64,000 bases of DNA from Fusobacteriaceae bacterium UBA2433 (GTDB taxonomy: Bacteria > Fusobacteriota > Fusobacteriia > Fusobacteriales > Fusobacteriaceae). The notes beneath the pieces were generated by a model. That model did no database searches. It was not told the DNA's origin and saw nothing but the letters and a program-made list of their open reading frames with translations. This document shows, in pieces, positions 5,049 to 61,152 of this stretch (position 1 is the first letter of the stretch; each line of letters starts with the position of its first letter). Location of the stretch: NCBI GenBank assembly GCA_002342785.1, contig DDQV01000122.1, positions 18,752 through 82,751 on the forward strand, read 5' to 3'. A program made the translations under genes and the position numbers.

Positions 5049-5071
5049 AATCCACACTCCAACCTATTTTT

Positions 5072-6796
5072 TTATGATAAAGTAACTCTCATCACCTCGT
5101 CTAAACTAGTTACTCCTAATATTGCTTTTTTTATTCCTGAATCTCTTAGAGTATCCATCCCTTTTTTTATTGCTAGATCTTTTATCTCTATACTAGTTGT
5201 AGTTTCAGAGATAAGATTTTTCATCTCATCATCGACTTCTAATATCTCATATATAACACTTCTTCCCTTATAACCTGTGTTATTACATTTTGAACAACCA
5301 GCTCCTATTTTAAAATCTACATCTCTATAATCATCTTTATTTATACCCATAGCTAATAATTTTTTATTTGCTTCATCATCTGTTTCTATACAATGAGGAC
5401 AAATTTTTCTAACTAATCTTTGAGCTATAATCATAGATACAGAAGCAGAGATCAAAAATGCTTCTACACCCATATTTAATAATCTATGGATTGTTGCAGA
5501 GGAATCATTTGTATGAAGAGTTGATAAAACTAGATGTCCTGTCAAAGCTGCTTTAATAGAGATCTCTGCAGTTTCTCCATCTCTTATCTCCCCTACCATT
5601 ATGATATCTGGATCTTGTCTCAAAAAACTTCTAAGAGTAGCAGCAAAGGTTAATCCTATATCTGGTCTACATTGTACTTGATTTATTCCTTCTAATTCAT
5701 ATTCTACTGGATCTTCTGCTGTGGATATGTTTACATGTTCCTCATTTAATTTATCTAATATAGAATATAAAGTTGTAGATTTTCCAGATCCAGTAGGCCC
5801 TGTCACTAATATAATTCCATATGGATCTTTAATTATTCTATTTATTGTTTTTAATGCTTTTTCATCATAACCTAAACTAGCCAGATCTAATTGAACAGAT
5901 CCCCTATCTAATATCCTCATTACTACCTTTTCTCCATGGATAGTTTTTAGAGTTGACACACGAAAATCAACTTGTCTATCACCCATTTTTATCCTAAATC
6001 TTCCATCTTGTGGGAGTCTTTTTTCCGATATATCTAGATCACACATAATTTTTATCCTAGATACTATTGCATTCATAATATGTTTAGGCATTTTTTTTAC
6101 AGTTATTAACAGCCCGTCTAATCTATATCTTATCCTTATCTCTTTTTCATAAGGTTCTATATGGATATCACTGGCTTGCAATTTTACAGCTTTTACTATT
6201 ATAGCATTTACACCTTTTACTACAGGTGCACTATCAGAACCCAAACTAGTAACTATATCTTCATCTTTACTGATATCCTCAATCTCTATATCTTCCTCTG
6301 CAAATTTATTTAATTCCTCTAAGACACTATCTGTTTGAGTCTCTGTTTTCAAATCTTTTTTATGAATATACCTTTCTAAATACTCAATTATATTAGTTTT
6401 CATTGCAAGTACTGGTTTAATAATCATATTGGTTTTCATTTGTAGTTCATCTATTAGAAATGTATCTTTTGGATTTTCCATGGCTATCATGAGTTTTTTT
6501 CCATTTATTCGTAAGGGAAGAACAACTTTTTCTCTCATATATCCTTCCGGCAAGATTGATAACACATCTAATTTTAAATCTTTTTCATCTATGACTTTTA
6601 CCTTTACTCTATTTTGTTCTCCTAAGGCATCTAACATATTTTCCCCATCTAAATAACCCATCTTTATGAGAATTTCACCTAATTTTTCTTTAGTTTTTTT
6701 CTGTTCTTCCAATGCTTCTTCTAAGGAAGCTCTTGTTATTAGATTTTTTTCTACCAGAATTTCTCCGATCCCTTGCCTTCTTTTCACTACTACCAT
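5072..6796 (-). CDS. pilB: Type IV pilus assembly ATPase (GspE/PilB)
   Basis: MshEN-like N-terminus (IGEILV...LEEALEEQ...LGEILI), Walker A GPTGSGKST, Asp box, AALTGHLVLSTLHTN, CxxC/CxxC Zn site; likely start MVVVK at 6796 (GAGGGG RBS). Confidence 0.95.
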   Translation of the reverse strand: MVVVKRRQGIGEILVEKNLITRASLEEALEEQKKTKEKLGEILIKMGYLDGENMLDALGEQNRVKVKVIDEKDLKLDVLSILPEGYMREKVVLPLRINGKKLMIAMENPKDTFLIDELQMKTNMIIKPVLAMKTNIIEYLERYIHKKDLKTETQTDSVLEELNKFAEEDIEIEDISKDEDIVTSLGSDSAPVVKGVNAIIVKAVKLQASDIHIEPYEKEIRIRYRLDGLLITVKKMPKHIMNAIVSRIKIMCDLDISEKRLPQDGRFRIKMGDRQVDFRVSTLKTIHGEKVVMRILDRGSVQLDLASLGYDEKALKTINRIIKDPYGIILVTGPTGSGKSTTLYSILDKLNEEHVNISTAEDPVEYELEGINQVQCRPDIGLTFAATLRSFLRQDPDIIMVGEIRDGETAEISIKAALTGHLVLSTLHTNDSSATIHRLLNMGVEAFLISASVSMIIAQRLVRKICPHCIETDDEANKKLLAMGINKDDYRDVDFKIGAGCSKCNNTGYKGRSVIYEILEVDDEMKNLISETTTSIEIKDLAIKKGMDTLRDSGIKKAILGVTSLDEVMRVTLS

Positions 6797-6922
6797 AATT
6801 GTCCCCTCTGTTAAAGTCATTACTTACTTTTATATCTTATATAATATATTATAATTGTCTTTTTTTCTACCCCTCACCTATAATTAACTTAATTTTCTAA
6901 ATTATAATTTTATTTTTATTTT

Positions 6923-9900
6923 TTATTCACTATTTCTATCTAAGATACTCTCTAATATAAGTTTACTATCACTTCCTTCACCGATTATCCTTATCTTACT
7001 TTCCCTTTGTTTTGTTTGATTTTCAACTGTAGCTTTAATCCCTAAAGATTTTGTGGGTATAAAATAAATTTTTGAAAAAATTTTTTCATGTCCCAATCTA
7101 TCCCAAACTGTAATTTTTAAATCTCCGCGACTTCCTCCATTAAATTTAGAAGTATCTATCTCTATCGTATTATCTATAGACTTACCTTGTATTGTAGAAA
7201 AACTATTTCCATTAAGACCATTTGAATTTTTCCCACTATTACCTGAATCTACTATTTTTCCTCCTATAGTAAAGACATAACTATATCCATCTATTCCAAC
7301 TAATTCTTTAAATAAAGATAGATCTATCTCGATCTTTTCTTCTACTATATCTCCAATGATTTTATCTTGTAGATAGGAAGTATTCACCCTGGTATCTAAT
7401 ATAAATTTAAATTTTACATCATCTCCCTCGACTCCCGATATACTTATTGGAGTAACTAAAATAACATTCATAGAATCTATTAGAAATTTATTATATCTGT
7501 CATCTATCTTGATCTCATTTGTAGAAGTTTCTAAAATATCAAGTAATAGATCTATATTTTTGTTTATATATATTTTTAAATATCTTATATCTGCACCTGT
7601 TCCATAAATTTTAGCAAATATAACCGGATTTATTGTTAATGAACCAGGTCCTCCCTTAGTGAACTTATATATCTCTCCATTATAGTTCACACTCAGATCT
7701 TTATCCCCAACTCTTTGAGTAGTTATATTTTCTCGACTTTTCACCTCTTCATAAACTTTCAAAGTCACATCTTTTGGTTTACTATTGTTTAGGGTAAGTA
7801 TTTCTTTTCTTATTATTTCATTTCCTGCTTTATCTTCTCCCTTTATATAAAATTCTATATCTCTTTCAATTTTACTAGGATCTTTTATTACAAAGTTATA
7901 AGTAACAGTATAAGTATCGATTAAACTTGTGTCTTCAGACCTTTTTATAGTTCCTACTAAGGAATCTATCATATCTAGATCTTCTATTTCTAATAAATAT
8001 CCGCCTTTTTCTTTTTCCCCAATCTCTTGTAGATACAAATTAAAATCTTTTATATCAAACGAAACTTCTATCTGATCTTTATCTTTTACATAGGTAACAT
8101 TACTATTATCTACACTGTTAACCTTATATTTTTTCATAAATGTTTTATTTATTATAGATACATTAGATATCTCTGGAGCTATTGTATCTACCACAATAGT
8201 AGTTTTAGCTAATGGAGTCTTATCATAATTTAGATCTAATATCTTATCAAAATTATTTTCACAGTAATCATCTATACTAATTAACTTACCACTCTTACTC
8301 ATCCCATAGACCTTACCTATATATTCTCCATCTGTTTTATGTTTTTGATCTATCTCAATCTCTCCATCTGTTTCTTTTATTCCTCCTGTATAAAATCCTT
8401 TAGGAGAATAGTGATAAAAAGTTGAAACTCCATAATAACTATTATTTAAATCTAGATCAGCTTTTGTTTTATTATATTTAAAGGCCAATATTCCACTCAG
8501 ATATCGATCATCTACCTTACTTAGTTCTATATTATAATTTTCATTGACATAATATTTTCCATCTGATAGATGAACAGCTATAGGATCATCATTTTTATCT
8601 AATATTGATATCTCAGGTACTATCTCTGTATTATCAATCTTTAATATATCAAATTTTTGATCTCCTATATTTCCATAATTATCCTCCATAGTATTTCTAA
8701 TACTTATAGTTTCGCAACTATCCTTTATTTTTATTTTTTCCCATCTAACTTTAAATTTATGTTTTCCTTCTTTTTCTATTATAGGTATCCCCCATCCTAT
8801 ATTTCCTATATTTCTATAGATATTATTTTTATTTAAATTTTTATCTTCCACTGTTAAAGTTATATCTATTAGATCTCCTGTTTTTACACAACTTCCTGAA
8901 TAATTTAAAATAGAACTAAATTTTGTGCTATTATCTATACTATATCCAGAATAATTATCTATCTCTGTATCTGTAAATAATTTATTACCATCTACTCTAA
9001 CCATAGATTTAAAAAACTCTTTCAATGTTGTGTTTACTAATTTTATCTCGGTTATCATAGGAGGTGTTAGATCTATTTCAACATCTTCTAAGATCTTAGT
9101 TTCGGTAAATAGATCGTTAGTTGCTGTAGCTTCTAAATTAATATATTCTATAGGTATCTCATCTAACTTCCCATCTCTTATTATATCCATCTCTTTATCG
9201 GTTAAAACAACTTTAAATTCATACCATCCATCTTCACCCAAACTCATATCTATACTATCTTTATTTCTATTAAATAATAAGGTCCCATCAGTTTTTAATA
9301 TATTTAAATTATAATCTTTAATTATATCTTGGATGATTATATCTTCTCCATCACCATTAGTTTCATAGTATCTAGATCTAGCTAAAAATTTTATAACTCC
9401 CCTTTTATCTACTATATTTAATTTAGGACAACTTCCAACTGGATCTTTGAACTCTACAACTATTTTTTTTCCTTGAACAGTGTATTGTCTATCCTCTATC
9501 TTAGCTTTTTTATTATCTATAGGATCATCTAAATTTTTTACTACTTTATCCATAGGAACATAATTTTTTCCATCAATTCCAACTAGATCTATCAATTTAA
9601 AATCTACTGTTCTTGTAGTTCCATCATATTTATTAAATGGTGTAATATAAGATAATCTCCATCTTTGAACAATTCCTATATTATTTATAGATTCTAATAA
9701 GGCCCCCCTTACATTTTCACCATCTTGTCCCATCTCATACATAAAAAAATTATTTTCCGTATTATAAAGTTTAAAATCAGTATGATATACGTCGGCTCTA
9801 TCTGATGGATCTATCCCTAATATAGGTATTTCACGATCATCCCACTCCTCCCAATAACTATTATTTTTATTTATTCCCCAAGAATATTTATATCCTAGAT

Positions 9901-11305
9901 TTGGTACTCCTTCATCTTTATATCTTGTTAAAATCAAATTTGTATCTATAGCTGTATTTCCCCTTCTTTTAACATGAAATAATCCTACTAACTTTATATT
10001 ATTAGCCATCCCATTATATGTAAAATTTAGTTTGGAATATAATTTTTCTAACACATTCTCATGATCATATCCAATAGATTCTAAAGTATTTTTTCCAAAC
10101 TTATCTCTCGTATCCATATTTTCATCTGTCAAAAATATTATCATTTTTTCCGACGGTATATCTCCATCATTACTTTCATCTGTTATATTCCCTGAAGAGT
10201 CTAAATATCTTCCATTAGCACGAATTTTTTTTATAGCATAATGAATTCCCCAAGCACTATTTTCTTGACCATGTAAATATCCTAATTCTGTTTTTATATT
10301 ACTAAATGCATCTATCAATTCGTCTAACTCTTTTTCTTTTTTATTTTCATAATTTACTTGCCCTAGGGTAGATCCATCAAACCATTTTTCCTTGTAGATT
10401 GCCATATAATTATCATTCTCATAACTATATATTTTTTCATTCCAATCTCCTATTCTATCACTTGTTTGCTCTGGTCCAAAGGTAATCAAATTATATTTTA
10501 CATCAAATCCCTTGCTATAGAGTTTCTCACCAAAAACTCTTAATCCATCTTTTATAGCATCTACTTTTTGTTGCATATACTTTGAGTTATCAATTACAAA
10601 TACTATATCGAGGGGAAATAAAATATTTTTTTTAGTCGATTCCTTTAATATTATTTTTTTATCTTCTTCTATACCTTTTTTTTCTTCTGTTTCCTCATTT
10701 TTCTCAGCTATCTTGGAATTTGGTAAAAGATTTGACCTAAGGTTATCTGTAGTTAATTTTATCTTTCTTTCCATCTTAGTCATAAAATCTATATCTACTT
10801 GAATCCCTTCATTACTAGTAGAAGTAGTTATACAATCTATCTTATAGATATTATTTTCCTTATCAAATTTCTCACTATCTATATTTTCTGTATCTATATA
10901 AAATGAATCATAATCTTCATTTGTAATAATCTTATAGTTTCCATCATGACCGTTTTTTACTGTATAAAGTTGAATCATATATTCTCCTATGGGTAATCCT
11001 TTTATCTCTATATTTTTATTGGAATATTTATACGATATTATCGTATTTAAAAATTTTAATTCTTTATCTACCCTAGGATCTATAATTATATCTATATAAT
11101 CTTTATTGTAACAACTATCTGTATCTTCCAAAAGAAAAGCTTTCATCTTCAAAGTTCCCACACTAATTTCTTCATCTCCTATAACTATCATCTTTTCATC
11201 ATTTAAATTATTTATAGGATTGATATTTCTATATGGATTCCAAGAATATTTAGGAAGCTCTGCTGTATATATCTTTTTTTCTACCATATAATCTAAATTT
11301 TCCAT
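6923..11305 (-). CDS. C-terminal part (1460 aa) of giant vWA/Ig-like surface protein paralog 2
   Basis: vWA fold start LDIVFVIDNSKYM and later IIFLTDE; Ig-like D..PP.I / DTIAP.I / DKAGN motifs; colinear with the C-terminal part of 13203-21740; no signal peptide of its own. Confidence 0.8.
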   Translation of the reverse strand: MENLDYMVEKKIYTAELPKYSWNPYRNINPINNLNDEKMIVIGDEEISVGTLKMKAFLLEDTDSCYNKDYIDIIIDPRVDKELKFLNTIISYKYSNKNIEIKGLPIGEYMIQLYTVKNGHDGNYKIITNEDYDSFYIDTENIDSEKFDKENNIYKIDCITTSTSNEGIQVDIDFMTKMERKIKLTTDNLRSNLLPNSKIAEKNEETEEKKGIEEDKKIILKESTKKNILFPLDIVFVIDNSKYMQQKVDAIKDGLRVFGEKLYSKGFDVKYNLITFGPEQTSDRIGDWNEKIYSYENDNYMAIYKEKWFDGSTLGQVNYENKKEKELDELIDAFSNIKTELGYLHGQENSAWGIHYAIKKIRANGRYLDSSGNITDESNDGDIPSEKMIIFLTDENMDTRDKFGKNTLESIGYDHENVLEKLYSKLNFTYNGMANNIKLVGLFHVKRRGNTAIDTNLILTRYKDEGVPNLGYKYSWGINKNNSYWEEWDDREIPILGIDPSDRADVYHTDFKLYNTENNFFMYEMGQDGENVRGALLESINNIGIVQRWRLSYITPFNKYDGTTRTVDFKLIDLVGIDGKNYVPMDKVVKNLDDPIDNKKAKIEDRQYTVQGKKIVVEFKDPVGSCPKLNIVDKRGVIKFLARSRYYETNGDGEDIIIQDIIKDYNLNILKTDGTLLFNRNKDSIDMSLGEDGWYEFKVVLTDKEMDIIRDGKLDEIPIEYINLEATATNDLFTETKILEDVEIDLTPPMITEIKLVNTTLKEFFKSMVRVDGNKLFTDTEIDNYSGYSIDNSTKFSSILNYSGSCVKTGDLIDITLTVEDKNLNKNNIYRNIGNIGWGIPIIEKEGKHKFKVRWEKIKIKDSCETISIRNTMEDNYGNIGDQKFDILKIDNTEIVPEISILDKNDDPIAVHLSDGKYYVNENYNIELSKVDDRYLSGILAFKYNKTKADLDLNNSYYGVSTFYHYSPKGFYTGGIKETDGEIEIDQKHKTDGEYIGKVYGMSKSGKLISIDDYCENNFDKILDLNYDKTPLAKTTIVVDTIAPEISNVSIINKTFMKKYKVNSVDNSNVTYVKDKDQIEVSFDIKDFNLYLQEIGEKEKGGYLLEIEDLDMIDSLVGTIKRSEDTSLIDTYTVTYNFVIKDPSKIERDIEFYIKGEDKAGNEIIRKEILTLNNSKPKDVTLKVYEEVKSRENITTQRVGDKDLSVNYNGEIYKFTKGGPGSLTINPVIFAKIYGTGADIRYLKIYINKNIDLLLDILETSTNEIKIDDRYNKFLIDSMNVILVTPISISGVEGDDVKFKFILDTRVNTSYLQDKIIGDIVEEKIEIDLSLFKELVGIDGYSYVFTIGGKIVDSGNSGKNSNGLNGNSFSTIQGKSIDNTIEIDTSKFNGGSRGDLKITVWDRLGHEKIFSKIYFIPTKSLGIKATVENQTKQRESKIRIIGEGSDSKLILESILDRNSE

Positions 11306-11395
11306 TATTTCTTTACCTTTAGGTTTCTTTAAAATTCTAAATATAATTTTATCATAGTTTAATATTACTCCATTTGTATTTTGAAATCCTTCACT

Positions 11396-13060
11396 TCAGC
11401 TATACACAACCTTATTTTTAATATTTTCAACTTGTTCTAACCCCTGCCCCATATCATCTGTATAAAATTCTAATTTAAAATTGTTATCACCTATTAATTC
11501 ACCCTTAGTTTCTGAAATAATTTTTTCTATCATTATTCCTTCTACATCTTCATCTACTAAATATCTCCACCTATTATTATAAAATCTAAATCTATTTATA
11601 AACTTATAATCTCCTCCTGACAAATATCCTTTTAATGTTGTTTCATAATCTACAGATTTTATCTGTCGATATCCACATCTTTCTGGAGTTAATATCCTAT
11701 CTTTTATTTGATAGCTTTGATCTTTCAGCTGATAATCTTTCCTTTTTCCTGAACTATCTAAAGATTCAAAAATTATCCACTGCTTAGGATATTCGTCATA
11801 TTTTTCCTCTATGGTAGGTTCAATATATATTCCAACTTGTTGTTGTTTTATAAGATCCTTTCCCTCTATCTCAAATGAAACTTCCCTTTGATCTCCTTTT
11901 TTTTCTATAAAATCACTTTCATAACTTCCTTCCCATCTATATACATATTTTTTATTATTTTCATCTATTGTTATTTGGTCATCTACAACTTTATAATTAG
12001 TTCTACCTATATTTATACAAGTTCCACTGAGACTAATAGGAGTAGATATAATTATATCTGAAACTGTATTTACAGGTATCTTTCTTTTTTCAGTTATATT
12101 TTTTAATTTTATTTGAGGTAATTTTTTTGAAGTCAGAGTTATTATATTTAGTTTTATATCTTTATAGTTAGATATATCTATATCTTCTAACCATCCTATA
12201 TTTTCAACCTCTATAGAACTTTGATTTTTTCCATAAAAAGTCAGAGTACTTTCATGGGTAACTACTACATAGTTTCCAATATTATTATTATTTTTATATC
12301 TAAGGGTATATAGATCTAAATTATAAGATCTTTTATCTTCTAATCCAATAAGTTCAAACTTACCATCTATATATCTTCCTGTTATTCCATCTTTAACTAT
12401 TTTTTGCTGAATTTTATTATCTTCAAATACAAAATCTATATAATCATCTTTTTCATAAAAATTTTTTAAATTATCTTTCTCTTCTATTTTTTTTATAGGA
12501 CGAATTTCATTTATTTTTTCCCCTAAATAGAGTCTATAGACCACCTCTTGATATTTGTATGCTATAAGATGCTCTAACTTATATTCATCATCATAGAAAA
12601 AAGTATTTTTAGAATTTTCAAGATCTTCTTCCCTAAAATTAGTTATAGAAGAAGGCACAACATAACTTTCATCTATCATTTTTTTATATGTTGGGATATC
12701 TTTTCTATCATCTATTTTTGTTAAACTAAAAGTAGATTCTTTTGGTTTTTCTTTATTTTTTTTTAATTTGAATTCCACCATAGGCCTATTAATACCTTCA
12801 TATCTATAACGTTTATTTTCAATCTTACTAAATTCAGATTTATCATAAGTAGAATCTGAATTTAAAAATTCTTTTAAACTCATATCTCCTATTTCAATTG
12901 AAAATACAGAATGTTCATTTTCTAAATCTAATCCATCTATAATATACTGATCAGATTTAACTAAGTTATCTTTAGCTATCTGAGAATATATATATTGATC
13001 ACTAGAAAATATTACAACACTTAAAAATAAAAATAAAAACAATACCCACAAACCCTTCAT
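11396..13060 (-). CDS. N-terminal part (554 aa) of giant surface protein paralog 2
   Basis: Sec-type signal MKGLWVLFLFLFLSVVIFS; one A repeat, one B domain and the first half of a diverged A repeat; ends at the in-frame TGA. Confidence 0.8.
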   Translation of the reverse strand: MKGLWVLFLFLFLSVVIFSSDQYIYSQIAKDNLVKSDQYIIDGLDLENEHSVFSIEIGDMSLKEFLNSDSTYDKSEFSKIENKRYRYEGINRPMVEFKLKKNKEKPKESTFSLTKIDDRKDIPTYKKMIDESYVVPSSITNFREEDLENSKNTFFYDDEYKLEHLIAYKYQEVVYRLYLGEKINEIRPIKKIEEKDNLKNFYEKDDYIDFVFEDNKIQQKIVKDGITGRYIDGKFELIGLEDKRSYNLDLYTLRYKNNNNIGNYVVVTHESTLTFYGKNQSSIEVENIGWLEDIDISNYKDIKLNIITLTSKKLPQIKLKNITEKRKIPVNTVSDIIISTPISLSGTCINIGRTNYKVVDDQITIDENNKKYVYRWEGSYESDFIEKKGDQREVSFEIEGKDLIKQQQVGIYIEPTIEEKYDEYPKQWIIFESLDSSGKRKDYQLKDQSYQIKDRILTPERCGYRQIKSVDYETTLKGYLSGGDYKFINRFRFYNNRWRYLVDEDVEGIMIEKIISETKGELIGDNNFKLEFYTDDMGQGLEQVENIKNKVVYS

Positions 13061-13202: not shown

Positions 13203-16200
13203 TTAATCTTCATTACTTCCATCTATACTATTTTCTATACTAAACTTACTATCATCTGTATCTCCAAATATATTTACTTTACTCTTTCTCTGTTTTGCTT
13301 CATCTTCTATTGTTGATGTTATTCCAGTAGGCTTAGTAGGAATAAAATAAGTTTTATCAAAAGTTTTTTCATTTCCTAATCTATCATAGACAGTAAAAGA
13401 TAAAGTTCCTTTTGCTCCCCCTATAAAATCAGAAGTATCAATTATCTTAATTCCACTTATAGAATTACCACTAATAGTAGTAGATGTTTTTCCTTCTAAG
13501 TCACTTTCAACAACTTTTTCAGAAGTTTTTCCTTCTACAGTAAAGATATATTCATATCCTTCTACACCTGATAGCTCCTCTATCTTAGAAAGATCTATCT
13601 CAACATTTTTACCATTCATACTTCCTATTATTTCATTATTTAAATAAGAGGTATTTACCTTAGTATCCACTACAAATTTAAATTCTTTAGGATTTCCCTC
13701 TACACTTGATACATTTATAGGAGTAACCCTTACTTCATTAACTCCTTCACCAAAACCAAAAGTAACTTCTATTACTTTTTCCTCGTCACCACCTGATACT
13801 TTTATAATTTTTTCCCCTTCTATCCTTCCATCTTTACCTATTGTTTGTATCTTTAATTTTCCTATCTTTTCATCTTCAGAACTACTCGATGGAATAGTCA
13901 CATAGATCCCTGGATTTGGGTTATTTGATCCCAACCCTCCCTTAGTAAATTTATATCCATCTTCTATTATATTTGATTTTTCCTTTTGATAAAGTTCTTC
14001 ATAGGTATTTATCTTAATATCCCTTGGTATACTTATAGTAACTTCTTTTGTTGTTTCATTTCCAGCCTTATCTACAACTACTATTGTAACCTTTACTGAC
14101 CCACCATCTTTTAAATCACTTCTTTTAACTTTTAATGAATAAATTATAGGGTTTGAACTATCATTAAAGGTTCCAATCTCTTCATTGTTTTTCCCTAATA
14201 ATTTGTGTCCCCCTTGTCCTTCTATAAACTCATTATTATTATAATTAAAATCTTCTATCTTAAAAGATAGATCAAAGTAATAATAATTTTCAATATCCTG
14301 ATCTGAACTTTCAATTGATTCTTTTATTGGTAAACTAATAATTCTAGGAGCTATTGTGTCTACCCTAATTACAATATTTTCTCCACCTAAATTATCCCCC
14401 ATTATTGTTTTGAAATCATTACTAGAATAATCTGTAATATCTTTTAATTTACCACTAATATTCATTCCATAAATTTTAGATCTATATTCTCCATCTGTCA
14501 AATGACTATCAGAGGTATCTATACTTACAGGAATAACACTACCTTCCTCTCCTCCTAAGTAAACATTTTCATCTCCATCTAACTTATAATAATATTCTGA
14601 ATCTCCATAATATATTTTATTGCCATCTTCATCTGTTTTTGAATCTGCTTTAGTTTTATCATAATTTAATATTCCTATTCCAGCTAATAGATCTTTATTA
14701 GTAGTCCCTAAATCAATACTATAGTTGGAATTTACATAGTATATCTCTTCTATAGGTTCTATATCTTTTACTGTTGGAACTACTTCTATATCATTATTAT
14801 CTACATTTAAAATTTTTCCCTCTTGAGAAGCTTCAATTTCATATTCATTTTTAATATTATTAATTACTTTTATTTCAGAATCTGAAACACTTATTTCATA
14901 CCAAGTAACTTTAAATTTATTTGTTTCATCTTCTGAATCTGATGAAATCTCTATTATACTTGGTTTTATATCTATAAGATCACTACCTTGATAAATTTTT
15001 ATCCCCTTTAAAATATTATTTTGATAAAGATTTTTTCCCTCTACTATTAATTCAATAGATATTTTATCTCCAGATTTTCCAGTACTTCCAGTTGTCGGCA
15101 GACCAAAACTTTCCTCTACTTCATGATCATATCCTGAATATTTCAATATATCATCGGAAGAAAAAGTTTTATCTTTATCTAGTGAATACATTGTATCTAA
15201 AAAATTAAAGAGAGTTTTATTTACTAGAGTTACATCTGTAATTAAGGGAGTAGATAGATCTACTATTACATCTGTTAATATCTCTGTTTTGTTAAATAAA
15301 TCAGTGACTATAGTCGCTTCTAAATTAATTTTTTCTGTTGATTTTACAGTTGTTGATTCTTTTAGTATATCCATCTCTTCATCTGTTAATATAGCCTTAA
15401 ATTCATACCAACCTTGATCTCCAAATGTATCGGTCAAAGTATCTGTTGAATCAGATAGTTCTTTTAACTTAGTGTTACTGATTTTTAACTCTATCCCCTC
15501 ATCATTTGTTCCACTCAATAATTTTTTTAATCCTAGGTCTCCTAATTTTATCCTATATATATTTTCTTCAGATTTTTCAAAATCTGTATTCCCTAAAAAT
15601 TCATCCAATAAATCAGATGTTTCAGAACTATTATTAAGTTCATACCAAGTATCAGATCTATCAGATACAATTGCTTTAAATTTATCTTTTTCAATATTAA
15701 TATTAGTTTTATCTACTATTAAATTTAATGTTGTAGAAGATTTTGTAGTATTCCCACTAATAATAGCTTCTTTTTCAAAATTTGTTAATTCTACTTTATA
15801 GTTTTGATCTTCATCTATAGTATATCTCGCCTTATCAATATATTCTAAGATATCTACATTAGAGTTATTTGTAATTGTTACATCAGATTTCACCCTTCCT
15901 GCTAAAGCTTGAGAGATTAAATTTTTAGTAACTCTATTTTCTAGCCAACCTTCATCAGATAAACTCATCGTAATATTCTTTGGACTAAATAAAAAGTTAT
16001 TATTACTATCTAATACATCTAACTTATATTCATTTATCATTTTTTCTACAACAATAGGTTTATTATCTTCATCGAATTCATTATACCTTGCTTTCCCTCT
16101 AAAAGTTATTCTGCCATTACCCTCTACTAAATTTAATTTTAAATTATCTACACTTGGATCTTTAAATTCTAACGCTAACTTTTCTTCCTTTACTGTATAT

Positions 16201-19200
16201 TGTTTATCCTCAACTTCATTTAAATTTTTTATCTCTCTAGTAATATTAATTTTATCTTTTCCTATAAGATTTACTAGTTCAAAATCAATAGTTCTAGTTG
16301 TACCGTCATACTCATTGAATGGTGTCAAATAAGACAGCTCCCACCTTTGAATAATTCCTAAGTTGTTCATAGATAAAGTTAAAGCTTTACTTACATGCTG
16401 TCCTTCATTACCCATCTCATACATGAAGAAGTTATTAGCAGTATTATAGTATTTAAAATCTGTATGGTAAATCTCTTTTTCATCAGAGGGGTATTCACCT
16501 AATATAGGGACTTCGTTGTCATCATATTCTGTCCAATAATTACTGTTATCTCTTTTTCCATTGGTATAATAATATTCTAAAGTTAAATCTCCATAATTAG
16601 AATCTGGTTTTATCTTAATCTTTTCATATTTTTTTAAATCCTTATCTATTGTTTTTTCAACAGTATTTCCCCTCTTCCTTACATGGAAAATACCATTTAG
16701 ATCTATATTGTCTGGCATATCTTTAAAATTGCTATTCAATTTTGCATATAACTTTTCTAAAACATCCCCACTACTATAATTTCCACCTGGTATTTTAGAA
16801 ACTCTATCACCATCCATATTCTCATCAGTCAAGAAAATTATCATCTTCTCTGATGGCATATATGCGTTTTGAGGTACAGCACCTGAGTTTCCTTTTTCAA
16901 CTATCTCCCCTGAATAACTTAAATATCTTCCATTAGTTCTTAATTTATCTATAGCATAATGAAGACCCCAAGCACTATTTTCTTGATCGTAATCATAACC
17001 CCATAGAGCATTTATATTATCAAATGCATCTATTAACTCTTCTAAATCATTTTCACGAGATGAAGTTTCTCCTAACTTAGATCCATCAAACCATTTATCT
17101 TTATAAACTGCCATATAATCTCGATCATATAAAGTAACACTATTACGCCAGTCTCCTGTGGGGTATAGTTCTTTCTCTTTATTATAAAAATTATAGTTAT
17201 AATAATAGTTATGATTTTGCTCTGGCCCAAAGGTAATTAAATTATATTTCACATCAAATCCCCTATCTAATAGTTCTTGTCCAAAAGCTGTTAATCCATT
17301 TTTTACTGCATCTATCTCCTCTTGCATAGAACCTGAATTATCTATAACAAAAACTATATCTAATGGAAATAAAAATCTTTTCATATCAGATCCTTTTAAT
17401 GTTATATTTCCAGCTTCTCCTATCCCCTCTTTTTTTCCTGTACCTTCATTTATTTCTTCCATATTAAAACTACCAAATTTAAGATTTTCAACCTTTAAAT
17501 CTATCTCCCTTTCCATCTTGGTAATGAAGTTTACATTTACTCGGATATCTCCCTTATCTTCTCCTATAGTTATAAAATCTATCTTATGTATATTGTTCTC
17601 TTTCTCAAATTCCTCACTGGCAATATCTGATATATCCATCTTAAATTCACTTTTATTTTCACGGGTGATAACTTTGTATCTTCCATCATGACCTCTTTTT
17701 ATACTATAAAATTGAATAATATAATCATCTACCGGCAGCCCAACTATTCGAAGTTCATTGTTGGTTTGTTCATACGAAATTATTGCATTGTTAAATGTCA
17801 TAGTTTTACTGGTAGTAGCTCCTAGAACTATATCCACATAATCTTGGTTATAAGTTTCTTCATTTATATTTCCGTATAAAAATGCTCCTAATTTTTTATT
17901 TCCCTCAACTGTTGGTTCAATTAAATTTATAGGATTACTATCTCTATAAGGATTCCAAGAATAATCTTTACTAGTACTTTTTTTAGTTACTCGAAATATA
18001 ACCTTGTCATAACTAAGGATCTCTCCATTTGTATTCAGCGGACCTTCATTCCATCTATAGGTTACTTTATTTCCTATTTCATTTATTTTTTCTATACCGT
18101 CACCTTTATCATCTGTATAAAATATAAGTTCATCCTTATCTTCATCTTTTAAAATTCCTTTAGATTCGGTGATGGTTTTTTCAATTATTAAACCTTTCGA
18201 ATTGCTCTCTTCTGGATATGCCCATAATCCATTGCTATAAACAAACTCTTTTATTAAACTATGGGTATTTTCACCTTTTAAATAATCATCTAAACTACTT
18301 GCATAACTTATAGTTTTTAATTGTTTATAACCCTTTCTTTCAGGACTTAATACTCTATCTTCAATATTATAATCTTGTTTTTTAAATCCTCTTGCAGGAT
18401 TAAATTCAAACATCACCCATTGATAAGCGTCTCCCGTATCTAAGTTTACTGGAGTAGGTTCAATATATTTTCCTATTAAATCTTTATCTTTATAAGTTTC
18501 ATCTAAAGTTGAATATCTTCTACTCCGAAAATTTATTTCTCTAATTTTTCCATTTTTTTGTTCAAACTCTGTCTCATAACTTCCTATCCATTTATAAACA
18601 TATTTATTTTCATCATTAATATTTATTTGGTTATCTATAACTTCATATTCCTCTCCACCTATCCAAATTTTATTTAACTCAATCTTCTCAGTATTTATAT
18701 ATTTATAATTTTCTTTTTTTTCTTCTCCGTCTCTTGTTTCTATTAAATCTAAAATATCTAATTTTTTTAAATCTTCAGTCGTTATGGTTATCATATTTAA
18801 TTTAATTTTTTTATACTCAGATATATCAATATCTTCAAGCCAAATAGGATCATCTAAAGAAGCTATGTTTTTTCCAATAAAATCCAAGCTTCCTTCATAA
18901 GTTACAGCCACATAATTTCCAGTTTCATTATTGTTTCTATATCTTAAAGTATAAAAATCTAAATTGTATTTTTTATTATCTTCTAATCCCATAATTTCAA
19001 ATTTACCCTCTATAAATCTTGCTTTTATTCCATCTATTTCTAGTTCTTGTGTAGATTTATTATTTTCAAATACAAAATCTCTATAGTTATTACCACTTAA
19101 ATCAAAATCATTTTCTTCAATATTTTTTATTGGACGTAGTTCATCGTGTTTAGATCCTGTGTATAACCTAAACAATACCTCTTGATGTTTATATGCTTTT

Positions 19201-21740
19201 ATATGTTCTAATTCATATTTATCTTCAAAGGTAAATGTATTCTTAGATGATTCTAAATCCTGTTCTTTAAAATTAGATATAGGAACAGGTATCATATAAT
19301 TTTCATTTATTTTATTTTTCAAAACATTATTTTCTTCAACTGTTAATTCAAATTTGCCCTTCTCAGGCTCACCAATATTTGAATCTATCTTAAATTCTAT
19401 TATAGATTTAGGTTCACCCTCATATTTATATCTTTCTTTTTCTTCTGGGATGAATTTACCATCAACACCTATAATATCTGATCTCAATAATTCATCTAAG
19501 CTACCATCTTCATCAATTGTTTTTATAGTTTCTAATCTTTGGTAAAAATCTATTTTATATCTTCCAGACTCTTTTTCATATTTCAACAAGTTTTCCTTTA
19601 TTATTTGTGAATAGATCCATTGTTTACTAGGTTTTGGAGTAGGATTTGGATTTATTATATTTTTTCCTTCGAAAATTAAACTACTTTCATAGGTAACAAC
19701 CACATAGTTTCCAGTATTGTTATTATTTCTATATCTTAAAGTATAAAAATCTAAATTATAGGATTTATTACTTTCTAATCCAATAATTTCAAATTTACCC
19801 TCTATGAACCTACCCTTTATTCCATCTTTTTCTACCTCTTGTTCAGATTTATTATTTTCAAAAACAAAATCTATATAACTATTATTAGTCAAACTATTGT
19901 CTTCTATTTTTTTTATTGGTCTGAGTCCATATTTTCTATTTCCTGTATAAAGTCTAAAAACTACTTCTTGATATCCATAACCTGATTTATTTTCATCATC
20001 TTCATCATATGTAAATATATTTTTAGTAGGATCTGAATTAACTTCTATAAAATTAGTTGTAGGAGCAGGTATTTTATATCCTTCACTTATTATCTCTTCA
20101 TCCTCAAATATAAAAATATTTCTCATATATTTAAATGTTCCATCAAAAGGTTCCCTTTTATTCTTAGTTAATTTAAATTCAACCATGGGTCTTTTTTCAC
20201 CGCTATATTCGTATACTTCTTTATTCTTTTGAGTAAAGTTATCTTCTTCAAAAGAACCATCAGAACTTAAAAATTCCTTTAAACTAGTTTCTACTTCTAA
20301 AGATTTTAGCTTTTCTATATCTTCATAAAAACTTATATCATAATAATATAGCATAACTCCAAAAATTTCTGAACTCGTTTTATCTAATTTTTCTTTTTCT
20401 ACCTGAGAATAGATATACTGTTCTCCAATTTCTATGTTTGATTCTGACTTTATTGGTTCTATATAAATTCCAAATAAATTATTTACAGAGTGTTTTTTAT
20501 CATTACTCAAAGTTCTTTCAGCATCAAAAGAAACTTTCCTCTCTTTACCTTCTTCCTCTACAAATTTAGTAATATAAGTTCCTTCCCAGCCATATATATA
20601 TTGTTTCTTATCCCCTTGTCCAGGTACTTTTTCTATTGTTTTATGATCACTGTCTAGAGTATAAACTACTCCATCTATCATGACTTCATTTAAAACAACT
20701 TGTTTCATCTCTATTTTTGAATATTCTTCATCATCATTCTCTCTAGTCTCTCTTATATTTGAAAGTTCCATAGATTTTACATCCATATTTGTTATACTGA
20801 TCAAATTTATCTCTATTTCATTATAATTATCTGAACTAATACCTTCTATCCTAGTTCTAATTACAGCTCGATCTTCATCATCTGAAATCTCAGTTTTACC
20901 TTCAAATTCTAAGGTGTTTTCATAAGTAGCCACAACATAATTTTTATCACCATTACTTCCATATCTCAAAGTATAAAAATCTAAATTATAAGATTCATTA
21001 TTTTTTAAACCTATAATTTCAAGTTTTTCATCTTTAAATTTAGCTATTATTCCATCTTTACTAATTGTCTCTTCACTTCCATCATTTTCAAATACAAAAT
21101 CTACATAACTATTATCAGTTAAATTATTGTCTTCTATTTTTTTTATAGGTCTTATTCCCTCTTGTTTATTGCCTGTATAAAGTCTAAAAACAACTTCTTG
21201 ACTATCGTATTTTCCACTATTACTACTAACTTCAGTATAGGTAAATGTATTTGTTTCACCACTCATTTCTTTAAAATCAGTTGTAGGAGCAGGAATATTA
21301 TAATTCTGATCTATTATAGTTTCCTCTTTATTCTTTTTATAGTAAATATATTGAAATGTCCCATTATAATTAGAATTTTTATTTTTAGATAATTCAAATT
21401 TAATCATTGATCTATTTTCACCATAATAAAAATAATCATAATCAGAATTATAATTATTATTATTATTATTATTTTTGGAAAAATCCGTGCTGCTATAAAT
21501 CTCTTTAGATTCCAATATTTCTTCTATACTATAATTTTCCGTTTCTAAAGAAGTAGCTTTATCTAATTGATTACTAAAATCAATATAGTAAATATATCCA
21601 TGATTTCCTGTTTCATTAGTTGTTTTTAAATCACTTTTTTTTACCTGAGTATATAACCATTGATTAGCTGAAAAAACACTCATACTCAGCAGTAAAAATA
21701 ATATACATATCTTATAAACTTTCATTATTTTCTTCTTCAT
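13203..21740 (-). CDS. Giant (2845 aa) secreted repeat protein with vWA domain and Ig-like modules; putative adhesin (paralog 1)
   Basis: Signal peptide (about 25 aa); three ~250-aa A repeats, two B domains and a diverged fourth A repeat; vWA with intact MIDAS DNSGS; DTIAP/DKAGN Ig-like motifs; AAGGAGG RBS 8 nt upstream. Confidence 0.8.
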   Translation of the reverse strand: MKKKIMKVYKICILFLLLSMSVFSANQWLYTQVKKSDLKTTNETGNHGYIYYIDFSNQLDKATSLETENYSIEEILESKEIYSSTDFSKNNNNNNNYNSDYDYFYYGENRSMIKFELSKNKNSNYNGTFQYIYYKKNKEETIIDQNYNIPAPTTDFKEMSGETNTFTYTEVSSNSGKYDSQEVVFRLYTGNKQEGIRPIKKIEDNNLTDNSYVDFVFENDGSEETISKDGIIAKFKDEKLEIIGLKNNESYNLDFYTLRYGSNGDKNYVVATYENTLEFEGKTEISDDEDRAVIRTRIEGISSDNYNEIEINLISITNMDVKSMELSNIRETRENDDEEYSKIEMKQVVLNEVMIDGVVYTLDSDHKTIEKVPGQGDKKQYIYGWEGTYITKFVEEEGKERKVSFDAERTLSNDKKHSVNNLFGIYIEPIKSESNIEIGEQYIYSQVEKEKLDKTSSEIFGVMLYYYDISFYEDIEKLKSLEVETSLKEFLSSDGSFEEDNFTQKNKEVYEYSGEKRPMVEFKLTKNKREPFDGTFKYMRNIFIFEDEEIISEGYKIPAPTTNFIEVNSDPTKNIFTYDEDDENKSGYGYQEVVFRLYTGNRKYGLRPIKKIEDNSLTNNSYIDFVFENNKSEQEVEKDGIKGRFIEGKFEIIGLESNKSYNLDFYTLRYRNNNNTGNYVVVTYESSLIFEGKNIINPNPTPKPSKQWIYSQIIKENLLKYEKESGRYKIDFYQRLETIKTIDEDGSLDELLRSDIIGVDGKFIPEEKERYKYEGEPKSIIEFKIDSNIGEPEKGKFELTVEENNVLKNKINENYMIPVPISNFKEQDLESSKNTFTFEDKYELEHIKAYKHQEVLFRLYTGSKHDELRPIKNIEENDFDLSGNNYRDFVFENNKSTQELEIDGIKARFIEGKFEIMGLEDNKKYNLDFYTLRYRNNNETGNYVAVTYEGSLDFIGKNIASLDDPIWLEDIDISEYKKIKLNMITITTEDLKKLDILDLIETRDGEEKKENYKYINTEKIELNKIWIGGEEYEVIDNQININDENKYVYKWIGSYETEFEQKNGKIREINFRSRRYSTLDETYKDKDLIGKYIEPTPVNLDTGDAYQWVMFEFNPARGFKKQDYNIEDRVLSPERKGYKQLKTISYASSLDDYLKGENTHSLIKEFVYSNGLWAYPEESNSKGLIIEKTITESKGILKDEDKDELIFYTDDKGDGIEKINEIGNKVTYRWNEGPLNTNGEILSYDKVIFRVTKKSTSKDYSWNPYRDSNPINLIEPTVEGNKKLGAFLYGNINEETYNQDYVDIVLGATTSKTMTFNNAIISYEQTNNELRIVGLPVDDYIIQFYSIKRGHDGRYKVITRENKSEFKMDISDIASEEFEKENNIHKIDFITIGEDKGDIRVNVNFITKMEREIDLKVENLKFGSFNMEEINEGTGKKEGIGEAGNITLKGSDMKRFLFPLDIVFVIDNSGSMQEEIDAVKNGLTAFGQELLDRGFDVKYNLITFGPEQNHNYYYNYNFYNKEKELYPTGDWRNSVTLYDRDYMAVYKDKWFDGSKLGETSSRENDLEELIDAFDNINALWGYDYDQENSAWGLHYAIDKLRTNGRYLSYSGEIVEKGNSGAVPQNAYMPSEKMIIFLTDENMDGDRVSKIPGGNYSSGDVLEKLYAKLNSNFKDMPDNIDLNGIFHVRKRGNTVEKTIDKDLKKYEKIKIKPDSNYGDLTLEYYYTNGKRDNSNYWTEYDDNEVPILGEYPSDEKEIYHTDFKYYNTANNFFMYEMGNEGQHVSKALTLSMNNLGIIQRWELSYLTPFNEYDGTTRTIDFELVNLIGKDKINITREIKNLNEVEDKQYTVKEEKLALEFKDPSVDNLKLNLVEGNGRITFRGKARYNEFDEDNKPIVVEKMINEYKLDVLDSNNNFLFSPKNITMSLSDEGWLENRVTKNLISQALAGRVKSDVTITNNSNVDILEYIDKARYTIDEDQNYKVELTNFEKEAIISGNTTKSSTTLNLIVDKTNINIEKDKFKAIVSDRSDTWYELNNSSETSDLLDEFLGNTDFEKSEENIYRIKLGDLGLKKLLSGTNDEGIELKISNTKLKELSDSTDTLTDTFGDQGWYEFKAILTDEEMDILKESTTVKSTEKINLEATIVTDLFNKTEILTDVIVDLSTPLITDVTLVNKTLFNFLDTMYSLDKDKTFSSDDILKYSGYDHEVEESFGLPTTGSTGKSGDKISIELIVEGKNLYQNNILKGIKIYQGSDLIDIKPSIIEISSDSEDETNKFKVTWYEISVSDSEIKVINNIKNEYEIEASQEGKILNVDNNDIEVVPTVKDIEPIEEIYYVNSNYSIDLGTTNKDLLAGIGILNYDKTKADSKTDEDGNKIYYGDSEYYYKLDGDENVYLGGEEGSVIPVSIDTSDSHLTDGEYRSKIYGMNISGKLKDITDYSSNDFKTIMGDNLGGENIVIRVDTIAPRIISLPIKESIESSDQDIENYYYFDLSFKIEDFNYNNNEFIEGQGGHKLLGKNNEEIGTFNDSSNPIIYSLKVKRSDLKDGGSVKVTIVVVDKAGNETTKEVTISIPRDIKINTYEELYQKEKSNIIEDGYKFTKGGLGSNNPNPGIYVTIPSSSSEDEKIGKLKIQTIGKDGRIEGEKIIKVSGGDEEKVIEVTFGFGEGVNEVRVTPINVSSVEGNPKEFKFVVDTKVNTSYLNNEIIGSMNGKNVEIDLSKIEELSGVEGYEYIFTVEGKTSEKVVESDLEGKTSTTISGNSISGIKIIDTSDFIGGAKGTLSFTVYDRLGNEKTFDKTYFIPTKPTGITSTIEDEAKQRKSKVNIFGDTDDSKFSIENSIDGSNED
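21453..21473 (-). repeat. (AAT)7 in-frame microsatellite encoding poly-Asn
   Basis: Seven ATT units on the plus strand; protein SKNNNNNNNYNSD. Confidence 0.85.
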
Positions 21741-43836: not shown

Positions 43837-45615
43837 TCAAATTTTCATAGAAATAAATTCTTTATAATTTTCTTCTAAATCATCTATCTTTATGTCACTG
43901 ATTATCTTTTCATATATTTTTTTACAATTTAAAAATGATTTTATATCATTTGTTTTAAAAAAACTCATCTTTTCATCGATCTCTTTTACGAACCATCTCT
44001 TATAAATCTCGATGTAAGTATTTATAATATCTTCTTCATTTTTAGCAGAAAGCTCTGTAGATATATTGAGAATTATCTCCTCCTCCTCCTCTTCTAACTT
44101 AAAAAAATTACCTCGAAGTAATTCTTGTATATAATTTTTCTCTCCATTTTGATTTATTATATCAAATATATTTTGAACAAAAGGAGAAGTTATTGTCCTA
44201 TTTTTAAATTGTTTAAAATACTTTCTATCCTTTAAACATAATTTTAATGTTTCTAATTCTAACTCATCTATTTTTAATATTTTTGTTTTTAAATGTGGGC
44301 TTTGAATTTTTTTTACTAATATAGTTCCTTCATTATTTTGTATCAATATCTTTCTTAATATCTTAACTTCTTTTTCCATTCCTAAAGATACAGACAATTT
44401 GTTTAAATACAAACTTTTTTCTAAATCTGTTTCAACAGATAAAAAAAACTCCTTAAACCTACCTATAAAATTTTGCTTTGCCATAAAATTACTTAAGTCA
44501 TATTCTTTAACATAAAAATCATATAAAAAATCAAAAATTTCTTTTGATTTTTTTACAGATTTTAAAAATTCAGTCTTACCATATTTTTTCAAAAATTCAT
44601 CTGGATCTTTAGCATTTTTTAGTTCTAAAACTCTTATATTAAATCCATATTTTTTTAAAATTAAACTAGTTTTTTCAGTAGCTAATCTACCAGCATTATC
44701 CATATCAAAAGCGATTATTACATTAGACGTATATCTTTTTAAAAGTTCAGCTTGCTCATTAGAAAAAGCTGTTCCTAAAGGAGCCAATGCTACATCAAAC
44801 CCATAGGCATGAGCTGCTAGCACATCCATATATCCTTCCATTAAAAGAGCATAATTTTTCCTTCTAATACTATTTCCTTTATTTTTTATACCGTAAAGAT
44901 TCCATCCTTTATGAAACAATGGAGTCTCTGGTGAATTTAAATATTTTGCAAGATCTTTCCTATCACTCATAGTTCTACCGCCAAAGGCGATTATATTTCC
45001 ATTAGGTGAATAAATTGGATAAATTACCCTATCACGGAAGGTATCATAATACCCTTTATCACCACTTTTTATCAAGCCTAATTTAGATAAAACCAAAGGA
45101 TCATAACCTTCTTTTATTAAATAATTATAAAGAGAATCCCATCCATTCAATGCATATCCTAAATTATTTTCCTTTATAAAATCAGGCTTCATTCCCCTCT
45201 TATTTAAATAAAGAAGTGCTTCTCTTCCAGAATTAGAAAAAATATTTTCCTTAAAAAATGAAAGTGCTTTATTTAAAACTTCATAATATTTTTTATTTTT
45301 ATTTTCTGAATTATTTCCATTTATAGGTGTTATATCTAATTTATATTTTTTACTTAACTCATAAACAGCTTCTCCATAGGTTAATTTATTATATTCCATA
45401 TAAAATTTAATAACATTTCCACCTGCACCGCAAACAAAACATTTGTATATATTTTTTGAGGTATTTACCATAAAAGATGGATTGGTATCTTTATGAAATG
45501 GACAAAGACCTTTATAATTTGAACCTGTTTTCTTTAAATCAACATATTCACCTATAACTTCTACAATATTTAATTGTGTTATAACCTTATCTAAATCTTC
45601 ATTTCTAAATTTCAT
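43837..45615 (-). CDS. dnaG: DNA primase
   Basis: CPFH..CF.C Zn finger, FGGR, KYLNSPET, EGYMD TOPRIM, DPDE; ends with TGA; likely start MKFR at 45615. Confidence 0.97.
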   Translation of the reverse strand: MKFRNEDLDKVITQLNIVEVIGEYVDLKKTGSNYKGLCPFHKDTNPSFMVNTSKNIYKCFVCGAGGNVIKFYMEYNKLTYGEAVYELSKKYKLDITPINGNNSENKNKKYYEVLNKALSFFKENIFSNSGREALLYLNKRGMKPDFIKENNLGYALNGWDSLYNYLIKEGYDPLVLSKLGLIKSGDKGYYDTFRDRVIYPIYSPNGNIIAFGGRTMSDRKDLAKYLNSPETPLFHKGWNLYGIKNKGNSIRRKNYALLMEGYMDVLAAHAYGFDVALAPLGTAFSNEQAELLKRYTSNVIIAFDMDNAGRLATEKTSLILKKYGFNIRVLELKNAKDPDEFLKKYGKTEFLKSVKKSKEIFDFLYDFYVKEYDLSNFMAKQNFIGRFKEFFLSVETDLEKSLYLNKLSVSLGMEKEVKILRKILIQNNEGTILVKKIQSPHLKTKILKIDELELETLKLCLKDRKYFKQFKNRTITSPFVQNIFDIINQNGEKNYIQELLRGNFFKLEEEEEEIILNISTELSAKNEEDIINTYIEIYKRWFVKEIDEKMSFFKTNDIKSFLNCKKIYEKIISDIKIDDLEENYKEFISMKI

Positions 45616-45746
45616 AAAAAACACCAGCTTAATTTATTTTGATACTACATTTCAGTATATACCATAATATTCATTATTTCAAGTATTTTTAATACTATTT
45701 TGAATATTTTTAATTTTTTTTCGAAAATACCTTAATCTAAAGTTAA

Positions 45747-61076: not shown

Positions 61077-61152
61077 TGGCAGTCCAGTAGGGACTCGAAC
61101 CCTAAACCCACGGTTTTGGAGACCGTTACTCTACCAATTGAGCCACTGAACT
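61077..61152 (-). tRNA. tRNA-Trp (CCA)
   Basis: 76 nt; acceptor AGTTCAG/CTGGACT; anticodon arm ACGGT-CTCCAAA-ACCGT; T loop TTCGAGT; encoded 3' CCA. Confidence 0.97.

Follow-up and report, generated by a model that had tools for sequence, protein, structure and literature searches.

An old in-frame UGA at an invariant tryptophan codon of a giant Fusobacteriaceae gene, probably tolerated or exploited through leaky decoding

In phage Q-beta, the coat gene stops at the natural terminus of a complete protein, and readthrough of this stop codon gives the A1 protein, which has an added domain. In bacterial genes, Belinky et al. (2021) described conserved in-frame stop codons with a ratio of nonsynonymous to synonymous substitution rates (dN/dS) below 1, and proposed that such stops lower expression through readthrough (PMC7918605). 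Most of these stops are very young (71% of the pairs show no mismatch within 30 nt, and 4% show more than three), and the authors regard them as deleterious in the long term (PMC7918605). Reading of UGA as Trp is known from E. coli and Salmonella (PMC7918605), and 6% readthrough has been described for catA86-TGA in Bacillus subtilis (cited in PMC7918605). The pseudo-pseudogenes of Salmonella, which are annotated as broken by an in-frame stop, may still give a low amount of protein (PMC9122581), and bacterial tRNA-Trp variants that read UGA, including one with a 4-bp anticodon stem, have been documented (PMC13092985). Here we describe an in-frame TGA in the marine, Psychrilyobacter-like Fusobacteriaceae bacterium UBA2433, found in a 64,000-nt stretch of contig DDQV01000122.1 (assembly GCA_002342785.1, positions 18,752 to 82,751 of the forward strand), hereafter called the window. 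The TGA interrupts a gene for a putative giant secreted vWA-type surface protein and separates an upstream open reading frame (ORF) from a much longer downstream one. It stands at a Trp codon that is invariant in the protein family, it is shared by three species-level lineages, and the coding sequence on both of its sides is under purifying selection. Based on these observations, we suggest that an old TGG>TGA change has probably been tolerated or exploited through leaky decoding of UGA as Trp, and that the gene would be expressed by low-level readthrough rather than being dead.

The split gene is the second of two tandem paralogs and lies upstream of pilB- and pilC-like genes (Table 1), and the gene order with these neighbours is the same in all related loci. 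When we re-derived the coordinates, the 554-aa ORF ending in KVVYS and TGA, the 30 sense codons leading into the 1,460-aa ORF, the otherwise intact frames on both sides with a single stop in the translation, and the TGG of the paralog aligned to the TGA were all as the preliminary description had given them. The zero frame after the TGA is open for 1,490 codons, to position 6923, and it is likewise open in the related loci L013, L018, and L021. At the aligned site the paralog reads KVTYR-W(TGG)-NEGPLNTNGEILSYDKVIFR. Residues 401-780 were aligned over 12 sequences, in which identity falls as low as 26-27%, and each of the 11 homologs has W at the TGA column. The match of the TGA to Trp is far beyond chance, because this column (W155) is among only 28 invariant columns in an alignment reaching such low identity. 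The intact relative L019 reads AAC TGG AGT GAA GGA and the carriers of the stop read AAC or AGC TGA AGT GAA GGA, one G>A transition apart. With Trp at the stop position, the predicted tryptic junction peptide across the TGA codon is VVYSWSEGFQNTNGVILNYDK. The uninterrupted orthologs are 2,198-2,470 aa long, with some of them listed at NCBI as Psychrilyobacter vWA domain-containing proteins, and the nearest named homologs belong to Psychrilyobacter, family Fusobacteriaceae. We also observed that the TGA and the following AGT form a tandem TGAAG-TGAAG at 11390-11401 of the minus strand, to which no function could be attached.

Relatives of the gene were found by protein searches and exact look-ups in public assemblies. 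A scan of genome contigs with the junction protein returned no match, and a scan of metagenome contigs gave one further informative locus (L029). TGA is present at the same codon in L013-15, L016-17, L018, and L021-26, and TGG in L002, L003, L004, L007-L010, L019, and L029. Comparison of the full genes distinguished four TGA alleles over about 13 public contigs, and since several of these contigs may share projects or runs, the safe count is four alleles and not 13 independent observations. The first allele is that of the window, identical in L016 and L017; the second, in L021-L025, differs from it at 76 of 6,138 nt (1.2%), and the partial contig L026 has the same junction sequence as this second allele; the third is that of L013, identical in L014 and L015; and the fourth is that of L018. 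These four alleles represent three species-level lineages, with protein identities of 64-77% and synonymous divergence (dS) of 0.36-0.59. Between the window and L013, the DNA identity is 95% for enolase, 88% for the pilB-like gene, 88.5% for the pilC-like gene, and 85.5% for a SurA-like gene, with dS values of 0.21-0.58, and the 27 flanking bases of the TGA contain 7 differences. Judged from these values, the two lineages are different species by any usual measure. The same split, into 554 aa and 1,454-1,651 aa, is annotated in other public assemblies in every TGA lineage.

When a maximum-likelihood tree was calculated, the three divergent TGA carriers formed one clade with support of 100/100, and this clade was sister to the uninterrupted TGG orthologs of P. 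atlanticus and relatives. The carriers being monophyletic, the TGG>TGA change therefore arose once. The comparison of orthologs in relatives, which the preliminary description had proposed as a check, thus shows TGA in three lineages and TGG in the sister clade and in further homologs. A sequencing error, one of the options raised there, is excluded by the identical TGA in four alleles over about 13 contigs. A recent inactivation of TGG to TGA is excluded as well, since the TGA predates the split of the three lineages and the downstream region is constrained, as described below. A further record concerns the same codon: L020:5119-5161 (JGI 3300039229 contig from a more distant relative, 48% identical in the N-terminal part) reads TAT GAC GAC TGA AGG ATC AAG TAA T at the Trp codon. 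This site looks like a two-base loss from TGG, with the +1 frame TEGSSN matching the family. As the contig ends 13 nt later, this could be an artefact of the assembly end, or else the same codon may have been hit independently a second time.

We then compared selection on the two sides of the stop among the three TGA lineages, using simple pairwise Nei-Gojobori estimates. The dN/dS values were 0.24-0.31 upstream and 0.29-0.33 downstream of the stop, with dS of 0.36-0.59 for these two large segments; downstream dN/dS, the other check proposed in the preliminary description, is thus the same as upstream and shows no relaxation toward 1. Codons +1 to +21 after the stop gave 0.31-0.38 on very few sites, with 86-90% amino-acid identity. 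When the 699-934 downstream differences were re-placed randomly with the same substitution spectrum (500 trials), a mean of 24-37 in-frame stops was created, with a minimum of 11, compared with 0 observed in any TGA lineage. No frameshift was found downstream in any TGA lineage, all indels being in frame, and within the species the window and L021 are separated by no indel and no new stop. Three-taxon branch arithmetic on the pairwise values gave omega values of about 0.32, 0.35, and 0.24 on the three branches, and therefore the window lineage is more diverged but not specially degraded. The intact sister pair L002 and L003 gave a dN/dS of 0.16 (0.17 upstream and 0.14 downstream), and, relative to this pair, constraint in the TGA carriers is weakened about two-fold, to the same degree before and after the stop. 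Such symmetric weakening would be expected if the two halves were one fitness unit with a lowered dose, and not if the N-terminal fragment alone were functional, which suggests the former.

The codons just after the stop were examined in the same lineages. The 30-codon linker of the window contains no in-frame ATG, GTG, or TTG. The first ATG after the TGA lies at +21 codons in L018, +23 in L013, and +30 in the window, showing that its position is not conserved, and no consistent Shine-Dalgarno motif was found before these ATGs. The ATG of L013 and L018 encodes the ancestral Met of a KMP motif, which is also present in the uninterrupted orthologs and was lost in the window species (KKP/KIP). 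No part of the region is better conserved than the motif EG..NTNG.ILNYDK.IFRI, which is encoded by the linker. Among the lineages, codons +6 to +18 show the synonymous changes GGA/GGG, TTA/CTA, and AAC/AAT and the V/I exchanges GTA/ATA and ATT/GTT, and nothing else, and every N, K, F, and R that is invariant in the family is kept after the stop. Since the linker is constrained as coding sequence and has no start codon, translation must presumably proceed in the zero frame directly 3' of the UGA.

Next, the genetic code and the decoding machinery of the organism were considered. The assembly comprises 2.77 Mb in 194 contigs with 27.9% G+C, and UGA ends 73 of the 1,136 ORFs of at least 300 codons (about 6-7%). 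As dnaG is among the genes ending in TGA, UGA is a genuine stop in this genome. The prfB gene for release factor 2 (RF2; 510 bits) contains the +1 frameshift site AGGGGG CAC CTT TGA C (G000 C22:~15250-15300). The statement of the preliminary description that the code is standard, made from dnaG and the CCA anticodon of tRNA-Trp, therefore holds and is extended by this site. A weakened RF2 was rejected, the SPF and GGQ motifs being present and the residue that we take to be equivalent to Thr246 of E. coli K-12 being Ala. Two tRNA-Trp genes were assembled; they do not differ from each other and are canonical, with the anticodon CCA. A special tRNA-Trp of the kind carrying the Hirsh G24A change, A9C, or a 4-bp anticodon stem (PMC13092985) was rejected for these assembled genes, which have G24, G9, and a 5-bp stem. 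Genetic code 4, in which UGA means Trp, was also rejected, with RF2 present, UGA ending ORFs, and no tRNA-Trp(UCA) among the assembled tRNAs; genome-wide use of UGA at Trp codons was not seen, the other long in-frame TGAs being selenocysteine (Sec) sites or gene boundaries.

These other in-frame TGAs, when at least 150 open codons were required on each side, are found only in two FdhA-type genes and one adjacent gene pair. A scan with a threshold of 80 codons added two more probable Sec sites (U-G-T-C contexts), and the remaining hits look like antisense shadow frames. The vWA-type gene is the genome's single unexplained long in-frame TGA. The genome encodes tRNA-Sec(UCA), and the two FdhA-type selenoprotein genes are located at G000 C55:24271-26992 (+) and C193:4719-7512 (+), with the motif HCAR[LI]-U-H and the Sec insertion sequence (SECIS) GUUGCAGGUCUUGCAAC. 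Further probable selenoprotein UGAs, possibly of the glycine-reductase type, are at C13:~23998 (+) and in C132 (minus strand, reverse-complement coordinate ~4478).

The base following the stop (+4) is A in all four alleles. This context, TGA-A, is not distinctive, being present also at 38 of 96 genuine TGA stops. Using a crude ORF list of the whole genome (G000; at least 250 codons from stop to stop), we counted back-up stops after natural termination sites. A second in-frame stop is present at the next codon in 17.7% of cases after TGA versus 9.9% after TAA or TAG (p=0.023), and within three codons in 43.8% versus 28.5% (p=0.0024), and this excess suggests that UGA may be leaky in this organism. 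Two other routes past the stop were considered and rejected. Editing of the mRNA from A to I by TadA needs a tRNA-Arg-like UACG loop context, and here the A is followed by AG and no hairpin is present. A three-base hop of peptidyl-tRNA-Ser from AGC over the UGA to AGU could take place in the window species only, since L013 and L018 have AAC, and it would also delete the invariant Trp.

The predicted protein was further examined by domain and structure searches. Pfam matched no family on the two ORFs, and the Pfam families VWA and VWA_2 matched the paralog only, below the cut-off (18-19 bits). A signal-peptide-like start, MKGLWVLFLFLFLSVVIFSS, is present in the N-terminal ORF only, and the start of the 1,460-aa ORF is not signal-peptide-like. 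The conserved C-terminal tail is kept in all TGA lineages. In an AlphaFold model of residues 401-780 (pLDDT 67, pTM 0.70), residue 555 is at the end of strand 150-155 (model numbering), and strands 167-178, 186-193, and 196-203 are predicted just after it. Judged from the list of strands rather than from coordinates, these downstream strands probably complete the same beta-sandwich or beta-rich domain, and with the stop-adjacent strands assigned to one domain, the 554-aa product would end mid-domain. A Foldseek search against the PDB gave generic FN3/Ig tandem matches only, with TM of about 0.2.

Table 1. Positions of the split gene, its parts, and other relevant features in the window
Feature	Position	Strand	Description
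Whole giant gene	6923..13060	minus	2,045 codons; one in-frame TGA at residue 555 of the translation
Upstream ORF	11396..13060	minus	ATG at 13060; 554 codons and TGA; ends in NKVVYS before the stop
In-frame TGA	11396..11398	minus	context AGC TGA AGT GAA GGA; family-invariant Trp codon
Start-less linker	11306..11395	minus	30 sense codons, SEGFQNTNGVILNYDKIIFRILKKPKGKEI, from the TGA to the first canonical start
Downstream ORF (gene-caller annotation)	6923..11305	minus	1,460 aa; ATG at 11305; vWA region and conserved C-terminal tail
Intact paralog	13203..21740	minus	2,845 aa; TGG 18051-18053 at the aligned column
pilB-like (T2SSE) gene	5072-6820	minus	directly downstream of the split gene
pilC-like (T2SSF) gene	3849-5057	minus	downstream of the pilB-like gene
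pilin-like gene	602-1075		in the window
dnaG	43837..45624	minus	Pfam DnaG domains; ends in TGA
tRNA-Trp(CCA)	61077..61152	minus	5-bp anticodon stem; G24; G9; presumed near-cognate UGA decoder

In L013, the first giant paralog is replaced by a 571-aa protein (L013:6397-8112), in which the signal peptide and the conserved C-terminal region of about 300 aa are retained, together with a long low-complexity run rich in Asp and Tyr.

Based on these results, we propose the following explanation. In the ancestor of a small Psychrilyobacter-like clade of Fusobacteriaceae, TGG would have changed to TGA at the invariant Trp codon 555, and the stop would have been kept since. Most ribosomes would be terminated by RF2 at the UGA, giving a 554-aa fragment that has a signal peptide and only part of the beta-sandwich, and in a minority the UGA would be read by the near-cognate tRNA-Trp(CCA), which is of the ordinary kind. 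As Trp was the residue originally encoded, readthrough would yield exactly the wild-type 2,045-aa protein. This minor full-length product would keep the 1,490 downstream codons under purifying selection, and the stop would limit translation of this very large surface protein as a built-in throttle, or act as a device that delivers two products in a fixed ratio. Basal near-cognate decoding by tRNA-Trp(CCA) seems to be the simplest mechanism consistent with everything described above. Leaky UGA-A readthrough, which the preliminary description listed as one of several options, is thus the one favoured by the evolutionary evidence, and the short secreted form and the minor full-length form that it named are predicted products. 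It is also possible, although we find it rather doubtful, that the UGA is a selected recoding site, that is, a site of maintained, structure-independent UGA-to-Trp readthrough and not a mere tolerated lesion. If so, the stop would fix the 2,045-aa adhesin at a low ratio to an abundantly made, secreted 554-aa fragment, or it would hold back a giant pilus-associated protein that is costly to make, and the output would follow the competition between RF2 and tRNA-Trp, for example with growth state or temperature. The gene would then be among very few natural conserved bacterial readthrough genes outside selenoproteins and phages.

Several observations weigh against low-level readthrough as the explanation. 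No stimulatory hairpin or pseudoknot follows the stop, the downstream 80-nt folds having z values of -0.4 to +0.7 relative to shuffles; the consensus fold of the three lineages reaches -3.8 kcal/mol with no compensatory pairs or covariation, and no Rfam family matches the stop region. RF2 looks fully competent. Given a competent RF2 and no such structure, readthrough may amount to about 1% or less, and so little product may not be enough to sustain selection over 4.5 kb. The retention of the third-position A in three lineages is not significant alone at such divergence. At about 0.30, dN/dS among the TGA carriers is double the value of the intact sister clade, meaning that selection is relaxed, though not absent. 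In the window species, two positions of the metal ion-dependent adhesion site (MIDAS) are lost, the sequence at 10577-10591 of the minus strand being DNSKY. The DxSxS motif is intact as DNSGS in L013, L018, and the intact orthologs, and the loss of the metal site, as read from these sequences, appears to be particular to the window species and not tied to the stop. Finally, ARAGORN found only 27 tRNA genes despite a rated completeness of 98.7%, with several amino acids missing. The tRNA set is under-assembled, and therefore the absence of any tRNA cannot be argued from the assembly, and an extra suppressor tRNA may exist.

The main alternative is a stable split, in which a 554-aa secreted protein and a C-terminal protein of about 1,460 aa, made by re-initiation at the downstream AUG, are both functional and perhaps reassemble. 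The two ORFs annotated in every lineage, purifying selection on both parts, and an ATG within 21-30 codons of the stop would all agree with it. We consider it unlikely, however, as the position of the first ATG varies, the Met of KMP is ancestral and lost in the window lineage, the ATGs have no consistent Shine-Dalgarno motif before them, and coding constraint acts on the 21 codons that precede the nearest ATG after the stop. In addition, the stop would cut what is probably a single beta-sandwich, the C-terminal piece would be made without a signal peptide in a family exported via the N-terminal one, and the fact that dN/dS has risen equally in the two halves suggests that they are selected as one unit. 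More improbable is a dedicated decoding factor, either an unassembled suppressor tRNA (such as a tRNA-Trp with anticodon UCA or a variant tRNA-Trp) or a clade-specific recoding, with efficient conversion of UGA to Trp. The finding of only 27 tRNA genes in 194 contigs leaves room for such a factor, and UGA-reading tRNA-Trp variants are documented in bacteria (PMC13092985). Both assembled tRNA-Trp genes are nevertheless identical and canonical, the other long in-frame TGAs are explained by Sec sites and an adjacent gene pair, and efficient decoding would clash with the normal use of UGA (6-7% of long ORFs, dnaG) and with an intact RF2 having an autoregulatory UGA frameshift site.

A reversible point switch between TGA and TGG, with TGG cells in the minority, was among the options of the preliminary description and would fit surface adhesins, which are typically phase-variable, and a single transition would restore full expression. 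It finds no support in the records of the clade, every one of which has TGA (four alleles, about 13 contigs); the site contains no mutable repeat, a plain point mutation would be too slow for phase variation, and the TGA state has outlasted speciation, and we give this explanation only a slight chance. Smaller still is the chance that we are dealing with a simple pseudogene, a nonsense allele of recent origin, or an error of assembly. The single stop that splits the gene, the doubled dN/dS of the clade, and the MIDAS residues lost in the window lineage could be taken in this way, but they are opposed by the presence of the stop in four alleles of three species-level lineages, by 0 further stops against 24-37 expected, by the lack of frameshifts, and by a downstream dN/dS (0.29-0.33) equal to that upstream. 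That the UGA encodes Sec is extremely improbable. A tRNA-Sec(UCA) is present in the genome, as are at least two selenoprotein genes of the FdhA type, which show the expected hairpin, GUUGCA-GGUC-UUGCAAC, 13 nt after the UGA. In contrast, the vWA-type gene has no SECIS-like hairpin, its downstream 80 nt folding like shuffles without an Rfam match; the aligned residue is Trp in all homologs and never Cys; and the region appears to be a structural beta-sandwich and not a redox site.

Genome pipelines call this gene two hypothetical proteins or a pseudogene, and the comparative data point to one selected unit in at least three species. The locus has a bearing on pseudogene calling and on the dosing of giant adhesin-like proteins beside type IV pilus genes, and it offers a natural test bed for the basal leakiness of UGA in Fusobacteriota and for a nonsense codon as a long-term expression throttle. 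When compared with the known systems, the gene resembles selenoprotein genes of the fdhF type in having an in-frame UGA conserved among orthologs and Sec machinery in the genome, and differs from them in the absence of a SECIS and in a homologous residue that is Trp and not Cys. Unlike organisms using translation table 4 or a UGA-reading tRNA-Trp, this organism has RF2 and uses UGA as a stop, and one gene is affected. The pseudo-pseudogenes of Salmonella are recent strain-level lesions with protein evidence, whereas the stop described here is old and conserved. As in Q-beta coat/A1 and catA86-TGA, A is the base after the UGA, the tRNA-Trp(CCA) is an ordinary one, no dedicated RNA structure would be needed, and a major short and a minor extended product are predicted from one mRNA. 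Unlike in Q-beta, the stop is probably located within a domain, in a gene of a cellular chromosome, and what would be released as the short product is a truncated fragment. With the class of Belinky et al., the locus shares an orthologous stop in several species, monophyletic carriers, and dN/dS below 1 on both sides. It differs from most members of that class in that 7 of 27 flanking bases differ, dS reaches 0.4-0.6, and three species-level lineages carry the stop. In addition, the stop is at a Trp codon, so that readthrough would restore the native protein. The stop is at the deep end of the age distribution of that class, and its codon is of the one kind at which near-cognate readthrough is phenotypically silent. 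Conserved in-frame stops of bacteria have so far been mostly statistical and short-lived, and the gene described here is a concrete, deep case at a Trp codon.

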